Part shown: one piece after another, positions 39,693 to 42,074 of the stretch | How the letters are laid out: each line of letters starts with the position of its first letter | Position numbering within the stretch: the first letter of the stretch is position 1 | Source of the DNA: an uncultured bacterium | Lineage (GTDB): Bacteria > Omnitrophota > Gorgyraeia > Zapsychrales > Aceulaceae | Assembly: GCA_937930175.1 (NCBI GenBank) | Contig: CALGLP010000013.1 | Coordinates: 75,764-139,763 of the forward strand | Reading direction: 5' to 3' | Length of the DNA stretch: 64,000 nt | Program-made: the position numbers and the translations under genes | The notes under the pieces: model-generated | The model's database searches: none | What the model was told of the DNA's origin: nothing | The model's input: only the letters and a program-made list of their open reading frames with translations

Positions 39693-42074
39693 ATGAAGAT
39701 TTTTTATTCCAAGCCCAAGATTTCTCACCTTGGTTTTACACTTGTCGAGGTTTTAATCAGCGTAGTGATTCTGGCCATCGCGTCATTTACCACCTATAGG
39801 GTATTTGAGAATTTTTCTGCTTCTGGGGTGCGTACTCAAGATGAGATTGTGGCCAAGGATATCATCAGTTCAACATTTGAGCAAATTAAGCATGGGATAG
39901 AGGTCCAGCCAGCTACGTTTGGAAATCTGGTCAGCTCAAATTGGACACCGGTTAATGATTCTTCTTATCCTGATGGGTATTATAATCAACAGATAACCTA
40001 TACTCCTCGAGGTGATGTGGTTGATGCCCTTATTCAAATGCAATGGAACGATCAAAGAGGCACTCAGCATGAGACAAGCAATGTTTTTACGCTCTCTCAG
40101 CCTTCTAATTTCATTTTTGGAAATATTGTCGGGAAGGTTCAAAATTGCAGTGTAAATCCGCCAGAGGACTTGGGCGAAGCAACGGTTACCATTAGTGAAG
40201 CTCCAGCTGGCTTTCAGTGGAAGATTGGAGCAGCTGCCACAGTTGACGATTCCGGCAATTATACTTTTCAGGATGCCCAAGAACGTAATACCTTGCCGGT
40301 TGGTCTAGGCTATAAATTGAAGGCGACGCGCGCCGGTTTTTTCGATGCTATCGTTCCGGCCGATCCCGGGATTGATTTGCCAGCTGCTCCAGACTCTGAA
40401 CAAGATATCTGCATGTTTCTTGCGGAGGCCAAGATTAAGGGAGCTCTTGTCGATGCCACTGATACAAAGATCGGAATACCAAACAGAAAGGTTAAGGCCT
40501 ATCGCAATGGAAGCGAGCGCGGGGTTGCAACAACGACTGACAATGGAGGATTTTCCATCACTGTGGATCAATTTGATTATGATGATGTGACTGCGGATGC
40601 TTGTTTTACGATCGCAACCGGAACTAATAATTATGCGGATTCTCCGTTTTTTAGCAGATCAAATAGTCCAGTCAGCTATTTTGGGCAATTCTGTAACCCA
40701 GCCTTTAGTTTTTACAAGGGTTGGTCTTCATCGGTCTTGGGAAACAATCCGTCTAGTCCCATCTGTTCACCAGATCCAAGCGAAAGCGGAACTACGCCAT
40801 GGCAGGGGAGGGCGAGCATCGAAAAACCGGACTCGAACCGTAGCGTATGTCTTGGCTTGGGCGACCCGGATTTTGACCTAGGCAACATCCCGCTAAGACC
40901 TTCCACTCTAGCGACGCTGACTGTGAACATTACAGTAGAACCTGCTGTGATCATTGATCCTAGCTATATAAGCGTCAAGATTACTTATAATAATGGTGTG
41001 GAATTTGCAACCTTTACCAAGGATACTGTGCCGGCTGTGATTGGCGCAGCCTCTCCTTTTACATTGACGGTGCAAGTTCCTCCACTTGATCAATTTTTCA
41101 CTGATGATACTCGAAAGATGAAAATTCGTGTTAATTTAAAAGAGATCGTTGGCGGTTGTTGCGGGAATGCTACGCAAACAAAAATTATTTGGAAGGATAT
41201 AGAAAAGATAATTGATGCACCTATAAATTCAGTGGATGCAATGTTTGACACGCCAAGCTCTGGTGTTGCGTGCGGCAACGCCGAGGGAAGAGTTTTTGAG
41301 CTTGATACAGAAATGCCGTATAACGTTGCCCTTACATCAGGGGTAGGCGCTCAAGCCACCACAGCGTCTAAAACTTACAATGCGACCAATATAAGTGGTA
41401 ATCAGTGGAAGATCAAATGCAATCCGCAGAAAAACCCGGACCCGGGGTGTATGATTATAGACACTTATTGTATTGATGTATGGGCTGCAAATCATTACCA
41501 TCGATCTTCCTGCCCGATTAAATCTTGGCCGCATACCCAGACTGATCCTTTGAAGGTTGAAAGCCCAACGCTTTTTACAAAGCACCCTTCTACTAATCCG
41601 AATATGAGCTATGATGTGGAGCTCTATCGCAGGGGGGTTGGCAATATTACAGGGCGCGTTGTTGACAGCAATCATAATCCCTGGCAGAATGCCAGAGTAG
41701 AGCTTGATATATACAATGATGGCGTTATTAGTGCTACAGATCCTGTCGTAGATCCAACTCCTGCTGATGGCATTTTCACGTTTAGCAACGTTGTGGAAAG
41801 CTGGCCTCCGACTATTATTGATCATGGGCCTAACCCTGATACAGCTATGAAAGTAGGTGAGTTACAGTTGCCTGCTGACACCCGCTCTGACAAAGCTAAA
41901 GAGCATACCGTTAATGATCAAAAGACGCACAGGGTCAAGGTTACGCTTATTCTTAACGAGGGAACTATGTTTGAGGAGGAAGGGACGGCTGAGATGGCTT
42001 CGATTTATGTTGAAAATGGTGTAACCACGGACATCGGCGATATCGTGGTTACGTTTCCTGGAGGAGGGCTTTAA
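39693..42074 (+). CDS. giant type-IV-pilin-like protein (793 aa) with beta-sandwich modules
   Basis: N-terminal prepilin motif HLGFTLVEVLISVVILAIASF. Several carboxypeptidase-regulatory-like or Ig-like segments (GNIVGKVQN..., GNITGRVVDSNHNPWQNARVEL...). Confidence 0.7.
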   Translation: MKIFYSKPKISHLGFTLVEVLISVVILAIASFTTYRVFENFSASGVRTQDEIVAKDIISSTFEQIKHGIEVQPATFGNLVSSNWTPVNDSSYPDGYYNQQITYTPRGDVVDALIQMQWNDQRGTQHETSNVFTLSQPSNFIFGNIVGKVQNCSVNPPEDLGEATVTISEAPAGFQWKIGAAATVDDSGNYTFQDAQERNTLPVGLGYKLKATRAGFFDAIVPADPGIDLPAAPDSEQDICMFLAEAKIKGALVDATDTKIGIPNRKVKAYRNGSERGVATTTDNGGFSITVDQFDYDDVTADACFTIATGTNNYADSPFFSRSNSPVSYFGQFCNPAFSFYKGWSSSVLGNNPSSPICSPDPSESGTTPWQGRASIEKPDSNRSVCLGLGDPDFDLGNIPLRPSTLATLTVNITVEPAVIIDPSYISVKITYNNGVEFATFTKDTVPAVIGAASPFTLTVQVPPLDQFFTDDTRKMKIRVNLKEIVGGCCGNATQTKIIWKDIEKIIDAPINSVDAMFDTPSSGVACGNAEGRVFELDTEMPYNVALTSGVGAQATTASKTYNATNISGNQWKIKCNPQKNPDPGCMIIDTYCIDVWAANHYHRSSCPIKSWPHTQTDPLKVESPTLFTKHPSTNPNMSYDVELYRRGVGNITGRVVDSNHNPWQNARVELDIYNDGVISATDPVVDPTPADGIFTFSNVVESWPPTIIDHGPNPDTAMKVGELQLPADTRSDKAKEHTVNDQKTHRVKVTLILNEGTMFEEEGTAEMASIYVENGVTTDIGDIVVTFPGGGL

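Follow-up and report, generated by a model that had tools for sequence, protein, structure and literature searches.

Which part of a type IV pilus is formed by a pilin-like protein of 793 residues, and are its modules shared with other surface proteins of the same bacterium? The question is raised by a 64,000-nucleotide stretch of contig CALGLP010000013.1 (assembly GCA_937930175.1) from an uncultured Omnitrophota bacterium, the whole of which is called the window below. Its giant modular pilin gene (39693..42074, plus strand, stop codon included) is documented by the list of open reading frames (ORFs), an AlphaFold2 (AF2) model and a family of relatives. The original prediction presented the product as a pilus-displayed adhesin, either a tip pilin or a large minor pilin, built from an adhesive module set shared with two FG-GAP proteins of the window. 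The answer favoured here, with moderate confidence, is that the giant protein would be a modular minor type IV pilin, part of a three-pilin tip complex and the carrier of an adhesive stalk.

The reading frame covers exactly the 39693..42074 interval and the 793 residues first assigned to it. A ribosome-binding site (AAAGGAGA, 39680..39687, plus strand), identified by direct reading of the sequence, is located 5 nt before the ATG. The N-terminus is composed of a leader peptide, residues 1-14 (MKIFYSKPKISHLG, 39693..39734, plus strand), which ends with Gly at position -1, followed by FTLVEVLISVVILAIASF, which reads FTLVEVL past the cleavage point. Both Pfam N_methyl (PF07963; 24.3 bits, cut-off 21.2) and TIGR02532 (23.1 bits, cut-off 16.3) recognise this class III (prepilin) signal. 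The residues expected of a prepilin, Gly at -1 of the leader, Phe or Met at +1 and Glu at +5, are all present, with Phe at +1; the canonical signal peptide of the original prediction is thus confirmed. An identical site, G/FTLVEVL (the slash marks the cleavage point), is found in two further pilin genes of the operon, starting at 34835 and 42077.

The AF2 model of the giant pilin, built with the family alignment, has a mean pLDDT of 79.8 and a pTM of 0.51. It displays a pilin module (residues 15-140; 39735..40112, plus strand) followed by an all-β chain beyond residue 140. The predicted pilin module adopts the "lollipop" shape of pilins, with a long α1 helix (residues 17-71) packed on an antiparallel sheet (strands 97-106, 109-119 and 125-135), and ends at the invariant P137. 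Block pLDDT values range from 59 to 94 over residues 11-140 and are ≥80 from residue 21.

The all-β chain harbours six domains and an insert, all encoded on the plus strand. M1 (residues 141-232; 40113..40388) is a CarboxypepD_reg-like β-sandwich predicted with a pLDDT above 90, and is related by hhalign to M4 (98.5% probability) and M5 (97.7%). M2 (residues 243-312; 40419..40628), also a CarboxypepD_reg-like β-sandwich, is closest to M5 (95.9%) and M1 (93.3%). It is followed by a Cys-rich insert (residues 313-392; 40629..40868), mostly coil in the model, which carries an invariant GWSS motif (343-346) and the conserved C358 and C386; it has no Pfam match, and hhalign finds it unrelated to the other modules. 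M3 (residues 393-508; 40869..41216) is a degenerate CarboxypepD_reg-like β-sandwich (M3-M5 96.2%, M3-M4 93.3%) with a vicinal cysteine pair, C489-C490. The M4 sandwich (residues 524-612; 41262..41528) contains the conserved C527 and C576, and the M5 sandwich (residues 645-708; 41625..41816), which has the best CarboxypepD_reg match, ends with an E(S/T)WPP motif (702-705). The C-terminal β domain M6 (residues 740-793; 41910..42071) comprises AF2 strands 746-754, 762-771 and 778-785 and stays below 8% in hhalign comparisons with M1-M5. M1 to M5 are mutually homologous, with probabilities of 80-98.5%; the same comparison shows no relation to them for the pilin head, the insert or M6. No tandem DNA repeats were found within the gene, and the modules are thus regarded as old duplications.

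At the level of the single sequence these modules are faint. Pfam gives one PF13620 (CarboxypepD_reg) match on the full-length protein (residues 652-700), at 30.5 bits and under the cut-off of 32.3, and three weak matches when the modules are scanned alone (14.7 bits for M1, 16.3 bits for M2, and 19.5 bits). They become solid at the family level. An exhaustive HMMER search over 1.84 billion cluster representatives defined a giant pilin family of 48 representatives at E ≤1e-3, 29 of them at E ≤1e-10. Nearly all members are 670-800 residues long (672-798 in the alignment) and align collinearly with the query over its residues ~12-710. In the 41-sequence family alignment used for the conservation and domain counts, PF13620 is matched by all 41 relatives (E up to 0.01, best E 2.6e-37), N_methyl by 36, and the SdrD_B, SpaA and Big_1 families by 13-16 (SdrD_B 16, SpaA 13). 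The several CarboxypepD_reg or Ig-like segments of the original prediction are hence borne out by the family profiles and the mutual homology of M1-M5, and the structure prediction that it called for does return a pilin module followed by a string of β-sandwiches.

The same alignment shows F15, L17 and E19 (Phe+1, Leu+3 and Glu+5 of the mature protein) to be invariant or nearly so; Phe+1 and Glu+5 behave likewise in an 8-member subset. Further invariant or near-invariant columns are W118, P137, G343-W-S-S346, C358, C489-C490, C527-G528, C576, E702, W704 and P705. The cysteines are retained in 36 (C489), 39 (C490), 37 (C527) and 39 (C576) of the 41 members. The giant pilin of the window is among the longest members and has a clade-specific insertion at residues 709-739 (column occupancy 0.27).

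A spurious ORF is ruled out by the 48-representative family with its conserved synteny. An identical protein occurs in GCA_036722365.1 and in one ENA assembly, and the named sources of relatives are Candidatus Omnitrophota/Omnitrophica and Candidatus Aceula meridiana (Omnitrophota per NCBI taxonomy). A word-indexed homologue search with the giant pilin returned only its own fragment, the same type of search with the family profile returned unrelated multi-CarboxypepD_reg proteins and zero family members, and a scan of genome contigs with the single protein gave zero matches. Four third-party metagenome-assembled genomes possessing the operon with a giant pilin (loci L015, L019, L021 and L022, GTDB representatives) are labelled uncultured Planctomycetia/Planctomycetales; either these labels are coarse, or the family reaches further into the PVC group.

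What fold do the modules resemble? A search of the PDB with the full giant pilin sequence gave zero matches. With the AF2 model, the top Foldseek matches in the PDB are tandem β-sandwich stalks and adhesins of Gram-positive pili and MSCRAMMs: Bacillus anthracis TIE comes first (6fwv, 2.5e-11), followed by the PitA tip adhesin, the SdrD B domains, BcpA, SpaA and RrgB. Sequence identities are 6-13% and TM-scores are low, the latter because the multi-domain chains are arranged differently. The all-β modules of the AF2 model and the matches with CnaB, SpaA and SdrD-B domains agree with a prealbumin/CnaB-type β-sandwich fold. Sortase pili and MSCRAMM B-repeats (TIE, PitA, BcpA, SpaA, RrgB, SdrD) thus share with the C-terminal ~650 residues of the giant pilin the same predicted tandem CnaB/prealbumin-type fold. 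In contrast to sortase pilins, which carry an LPXTG and a pilin motif, the giant pilin has neither and must follow a different assembly route. Assignment as a sortase pilin is rejected: the C-terminus DIGDIVVTFPGGGL (...VVTFPGGGL) is devoid of LPXTG and of a hydrophobic tail, and only the fold is shared.

The second body of evidence is the gene order. The giant pilin gene is followed by a small minor pilin gene (42077..42637, plus strand; 186 residues) and by a ComZ-like minor pilin gene (42668..43912, plus strand; 414 residues), these three forming the 3' end of the operon. The gene contexts of relatives were collected at 22 loci from about 14 distinct organisms. The order secretin, giant pilin, pilin of ~160-190 residues and PilX_N protein of ~400-430 residues is found in every locus long enough to display it, and survives differing flanks (prfA/secA or menaquinone genes downstream). 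Such a conserved location, next to further minor-pilin genes where the operon ends, fits a large minor or tip pilin. The pilin signal, the module string and this place in the operon bear out the large minor pilin of the original prediction, and they make the tip location and adhesive role that it proposed plausible.

The filament machinery is encoded in the same operon as the giant pilin, on the plus strand, and was assigned with Pfam and NCBIfam. The operon opens with PilZ (31553-31903), followed by PilB with an MshEN domain (31905-33602), PilC (33606-34805), a small pilin of 131 residues (34835..35230, from an internal ATG; MKRHG/FTLVEVL, N_methyl 34 bits), a PilM-PilN fusion of 490 residues (35258-36730), a PilO-like protein (36734-37360), a PilP/GspC-like protein (37347-37877) and the secretin (37880-39523). 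PilB, PilC, PilMN and the secretin thus accompany the giant pilin (39693-42074). Downstream of the operon lie the housekeeping genes cvpA, NIF3, dnaG and rpoD. The 131-residue pilin beside pilC is likely the major subunit. The candidacy of the giant pilin as major pilin was itself rejected, given this separate small and better conserved pilin adjoining pilC.

No other gene of the operon has diverged as much as that of the giant pilin, as shown by comparison with the remainder of the locus (L003, L009 and others). In its two closest relatives, giant pilin identity drops to 35-36%. The small pilin retains 65-67%, PilC 67-69%, the secretin 56-57% and, in one of the two, PilB 84%. Such a high divergence fits a surface-exposed, ligand-facing protein.

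Several features of the operon are side observations. The PilM-PilN fusion, kept in all relatives examined, is matched best in NCBIfam by the Akkermansia PilM-like protein of the Amuc_1101 family, as would suit pilus machinery of a PVC-group kind. The PilZ gene is kept at the same position in relatives. The secretin harbours at residues ~30-150 a long acidic low-complexity stretch (runs of D, E and S) ahead of its STN and Secretin_N domains. Between the secretin and giant pilin genes lies an AT-rich gap of 170 nt (39524..39692), and a gap of 95-246 nt recurs in relatives; a promoter/terminator consensus scan of the operon, this gap included, found sites no more frequent than in shuffled sequence.

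What would the partners of the giant pilin be? The 186-residue pilin, always found after it, starts with MKSNRG/FTLVEVL, possesses Glu at +5 and matches N_methyl at 25.5 bits; N_methyl is also found in seven of seven orthologues. The 414-residue protein has a PilX_N-type N-terminus (KRKG/IALLGVL), and Glu5 is missing in every orthologue. PilX_N (PF14341) is matched by five of eight relatives (best E 1e-9), the window copy having no Pfam match of its own. Its AF2 model (pLDDT 79.9, pTM 0.73) displays a pilin helix and sheet with a β-solenoid, and the sole significant PDB fold match of this model is the competence-associated pilin ComZ of Thermus thermophilus (6qvi, E 1.6e-7). The three consecutive genes therefore have the make-up of a minor-pilin cluster with a large member devoid of Glu5. 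For the GspI-GspJ-GspK complex, Korotkov and Hol reportedly described in 2008 that the large subunit lacking Glu5 caps the filament; this role of a large Glu5-less cap in GspI-J-K is summarised by Raynaud et al. 2021 (PNAS, PMC8179133). By order and size pattern, the three genes of the window would correspond to I-J-K or PilV-W-X.

Taking sequence features, fold prediction, family and synteny together, we infer the following course of processing, tip placement, adhesion and ligand binding. A small pilin module and a short Pro-containing linker would carry five homologous CarboxypepD_reg/transthyretin-like sandwiches, the Cys-rich insert and a sixth domain. The prepilin would enter the inner membrane, be cut after Gly14 and be N-methylated by a peptidase encoded outside the window. 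The giant pilin would then join the 186- and 414-residue pilins in a priming complex resembling GspI-J-K or PilV-W-X, assembled on the PilC platform, in which the ComZ-like 414-residue pilin, devoid of Glu5, would probably be the top-most subunit. The 131-residue major pilin would polymerise beneath this complex, driven by PilB, on the PilC/PilMNOP platform. As the major pilin would add from underneath, the priming complex would be the first to exit the secretin and would end at the pilus tip. The five or six β-sandwiches would project as a stalk of ~20 nm if extended, a length estimated from the domain count. Such a stalk may bind a surface ligand or may space the tip complex off the filament. 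A glycan would be the most plausible ligand, carried by a partner cell, a prey cell or a substrate, because PF13620 has a carbohydrate-binding-like fold (PMC8179133).

This kind of architecture has been catalogued before. Raynaud et al. (PMC8179133) defined the modular pilins, comprising more than 1,200 proteins with 264 architectures, and argued by modelling that they fit only at the tip. The IPR012902-PF13620 combination, annotated "carbohydrate-binding-like fold", is the third most frequent architecture, with 66 proteins (Dataset S1). The giant pilin, with an N_methyl (IPR012902) module and additional PF13620-type modules foreign to the filament, belongs to this class by architecture. As in other modular pilins, a small class III-signal pilin module carries C-terminal effector domains via a short linker, with tip display and adhesion as predicted properties. 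The characterised modular pilin, PilB of Streptococcus sanguinis (PMC8179133), possesses one vWA module and belongs to a monoderm without secretin, whereas the giant pilin has five PF13620-type modules, an insert and a sixth domain, and is encoded in a diderm operon. No experimental study of any IPR012902-PF13620 protein was found in the searched literature, nor any paper pairing "minor pilin" with "carboxypeptidase regulatory". Three features are specific to the giant pilin: five tandem modules, a conserved Cys-rich GWSS insert and, within a diderm operon, an obligatory association with a ComZ-like pilin gene.

Other systems offer partial parallels. CofB of enterotoxigenic Escherichia coli and TcpB of Vibrio cholerae, large minor pilins of the T4b type, also combine a pilin module with C-terminal β-rich domains, and are tip-located and initiate assembly (as summarised in PMC8179133). 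In contrast to the giant pilin, which is encoded together with two distinct partner pilins in a T4a-like operon, they have two extra domains and form homotrimers; they share no detectable sequence similarity with it and are absent among the 50 Foldseek matches listed. The ComZ-PilA2 system of T. thermophilus, GspI-J-K and PilV-W-X show the same small-medium-large gene order, with an expected priming and capping role, the 414-residue gene being the ComZ-like one. The known subunit in the I/V position, however, is the smallest and has no extra domains, whereas here the giant protein occupying this position carries ~650 extra residues. The operon also has three minor pilins only, without a fourth member of the H/FimU type and without PilY1, and the I/J assignments derive from gene order and sub-threshold matches. 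The PilY1/PilC tip adhesins have the same role as that proposed here, a large tip adhesive presented by minor pilins, although PilY1 is not itself a pilin. A PilY1 homologue was rejected, as the IPR008707 β-propeller is found by Pfam in neither the giant pilin nor its 41 relatives, nor in the model.

Several observations weigh against an adhesive minor pilin at the pilus tip. Some concern the complex itself. The head of the giant pilin is not a member of the GspI/PilV family (TIGR01707 21.6 bits, cut-off 44.35), and its GspI/PilV-type assignment is drawn only from gene order and this sub-threshold score. Likewise, the 186-residue pilin does not belong to the GspJ/PilW family (TIGR01711, 14.5-20.2 bits, cut-off 64.85). 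A Pfam scan of 23 pilin heads returned N_methyl only, and a PDB profile search with the giant pilin head returned only the generic α1N of major pilins. In the model, the orientations of the domains are uncertain (pTM 0.51). No gene for a Peptidase_A24 prepilin peptidase was found among the window ORFs scanned.

Others concern the machinery. PilT was found neither in the window nor in the operons examined. The best NCBIfam match of the 131-residue pilin is GspG (47.6 bits, below cut-off), and proteins of 208 and 176 residues give weak GspM and GspC_delta matches; the operon might therefore encode a secretion pseudopilus. In such a type II secretion-like system, the giant protein would be a minor pseudopilin at the tip of a short periplasmic pseudopilus. 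Its sandwich string would enter the secretin or pass through it, and recruit, retain or expel secreted substrates; the protein would be an adapter, comparable to CofB with CofJ, and not a long-fibre adhesin. The I-J-K order and size pattern of the three minor genes would suit this arrangement, and secreted FG-GAP proteins with Sec-type signals (by eye) are encoded nearby. The GspG, GspM and GspC matches, however, are all far under their curated cut-offs, and the alignment subcomplex is of the PilM-PilN/PilO type (PF05137, TIGR01175). The PilB with MshEN domain and its PilZ partner are those of pilus systems. Furthermore, the Omnitrophota loci have been published as those of type 4a pili, which Velamenicoccus archaeovorus is reported to express (PMC10066038). 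With these points taken together we regard a pseudopilus as unlikely, and return to the tip-located minor pilin.

The same pilin could also be placed lower in the fibre. Its Glu5 and complete pilin module would permit insertion anywhere, and a flexible linker keeps a position in the filament body possible according to Raynaud et al. (PMC8179133). The giant pilin would then be a scattered, low-abundance subunit, its sandwich string projecting sideways from a "hairy" pilus. In a diderm, such a side branch of ~650 residues would have to pass through the secretin channel alongside the filament, which seems sterically unlikely. The strict gene linkage to the Glu5-less PilX_N/ComZ-like pilin also points to a tip or priming complex. 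We give little credence to this lateral placement, still less than to a pseudopilus.

The last adverse points come from the family. Conservation is even along the full chain, without a hypervariable distal module, a pattern that suits a structural stalk no less than a ligand-specific adhesin. The residue at -1 is Ala, Ser or Cys in ~60% of the family and Gly in ~40%, whereas Gly is retained by the other pilins encoded at these loci (in locus L008, KKA/FTL for the giant pilin and KRKG/FTL for the major pilin). Non-Gly residues at -1 are unusual for prepilin peptidase substrates, and could reflect either a relaxed peptidase or poor or absent cleavage in those members. The giant protein might in that case be a strut or gauge that does not polymerise, anchored by its helix in the inner membrane and uncleaved in many species, with its sandwiches spanning the periplasm between platform and secretin. 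The fixed module number and length (672-798 residues), the even conservation and the location of the gene directly after the secretin gene would agree with such a role. In contrast, Phe+1 is invariant and Glu+5 nearly so, and these pilin residues serve methylation and subunit-subunit packing, not membrane anchoring. The canonical Gly is present at -1 in the window protein. The giant pilin gene also evolves faster than any other in the operon, which would be unexpected for an internal strut touching conserved machinery. A strut thus appears the least probable of these three alternatives to a tip-displayed minor pilin.

Are the modules of the giant pilin those of the FG-GAP proteins? The first of these (20376..23474, minus strand; 1032 residues) lies outside the operon and comprises seven FG-GAP_2 repeats and, at residues 480-950, five CarboxypepD_reg-related repeats of ~95 residues, delineated by Pfam, repeat alignment and an HMM. 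One of these five tandem repeats is recognised by Pfam as CarboxypepD_reg (53 bits). Their second half is strongly conserved (GYTYPAWAGADNPSWSGTV..KHFKGV), has no Pfam match and has no counterpart in the giant pilin. The array looks like a distinct repeat subtype set on a seven-bladed FG-GAP propeller. The second is a partial FG-GAP_3 protein (63271..64000, plus strand) that runs off the window, with an FG-GAP_3 match of 43.5 bits and a weak N-terminal PF13620 match (18.5 bits, E 0.0026). Both have ordinary Sec-type signal peptides, as judged by eye from the sequence. Their genes are unlinked to the pilus operon, one being on the opposite strand amid housekeeping genes.

According to the original prediction, modules similar to those of the pilin occur in both FG-GAP proteins and form a shared adhesive set. 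Taken further, this would mean recent domain shuffling within this genome, and hence the same ligand for all three proteins. CarboxypepD_reg-type segments are indeed detected in the three proteins by domain searches, if only weakly in the partial one, and hhalign aligns the FG-GAP repeat profile to the giant pilin family and modules with probabilities of 81-93% (90% at M5). The alignments cover only the first 38-56 columns, which is the N-terminal half of the FG-GAP repeat, and correspond to the generic "I.G.V.D..t..Pi..A.V......t...G.Y.F" half of the domain; even the most distant module pairs within the pilin are at least as closely related to each other. Pairwise BLASTP, the direct comparison proposed for the three proteins, found nothing significant in any pair, and the giant pilin obtains only 9 bits with the FG-GAP repeat HMM. 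The similarity to the 1032-residue protein, whose gene is on the minus strand, therefore stands at the superfamily level and not beyond. For the partial protein, which starts at 63271 instead of 63270, the weak PF13620 match is set against a probability of 11% with the giant pilin profile. PF13620 is moreover very common, and the architecture of the giant pilin is conserved family-wide independently of these FG-GAP genes. The three proteins thus share a common and widespread β-sandwich superfamily and no specific module set, and nothing points to a recent module exchange. Judged on sequence, a shared set appears largely refuted already, and recent shuffling with a common ligand is very improbable.

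A different connection is suggested by the 5' leader of the gene for the 1032-residue FG-GAP protein, which harbours a cyclic di-GMP (c-di-GMP)-I riboswitch aptamer (23548..23661, minus strand; Rfam RF01051, 50.7 bits for a gathering score of 35, with consensus alignment). Just downstream of the aptamer, a 13-bp GC-rich hairpin (GGGCCCUAUUCUC...GAGAAUAGGGCCC) with a weak U tract is located ~25 nt ahead of the start codon. This FG-GAP surface protein is probably under c-di-GMP control; no riboswitch was found upstream of the partial FG-GAP gene. PilZ and MshEN, both present in the pilus operon, are c-di-GMP receptor domains. Because the riboswitch precedes the FG-GAP gene and these receptors are in the operon, the link between the pilus and the FG-GAP protein may lie in c-di-GMP signalling and not in shared modules. 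More speculatively, the giant pilin of those members that have Ala or Ser at -1 may be processed slowly or conditionally, and could switch between membrane-anchored and tip-displayed states. Such a switch might be coordinated by c-di-GMP with the riboswitch-controlled FG-GAP propeller protein, which might itself serve as a PilY1-like partner.

Omnitrophota are widespread, uncultured and ultra-small bacteria thought to be attached to other cells or to prey on them. Seymour et al. 2023 (PMC10066038) reported type 4a pili in nearly all Omnitrophota and proposed that they attach to host cells, these pili being among the few attachment devices proposed for the phylum; neither "minor pilin" nor the giant pilin turned up in a term search of this paper. 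With the giant pilin family, a specific candidate is at hand for the pilus component that would contact the partner. It is conserved, evolves fast and comes with two likely tip partners, and thereby makes host recognition testable. The family also illustrates clearly, in a diderm, the modular pilin principle, so far characterised only in a monoderm, and adds no new principle; for specialists, it is useful rather than surprising. A bolder proposal, which we put forward as a long shot, is that the giant, small and ComZ-like pilins form a lineage-specific Omnitrophota tip organelle, with a ~20 nm stalk of Gram-positive type mounted on a type IV filament as a host- or prey-recognition device. If true, this would be a "pilus on a pilus" in ultra-small, probably epibiotic bacteria.

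Beyond the operon, RNA genes lie downstream of rpoD. A class A RNase P RNA is found at 50588..51005 (plus strand; 129.8 bits), and two tRNA genes at 49278..49352 and 49363..49436 (plus strand), all ordinary housekeeping RNAs.

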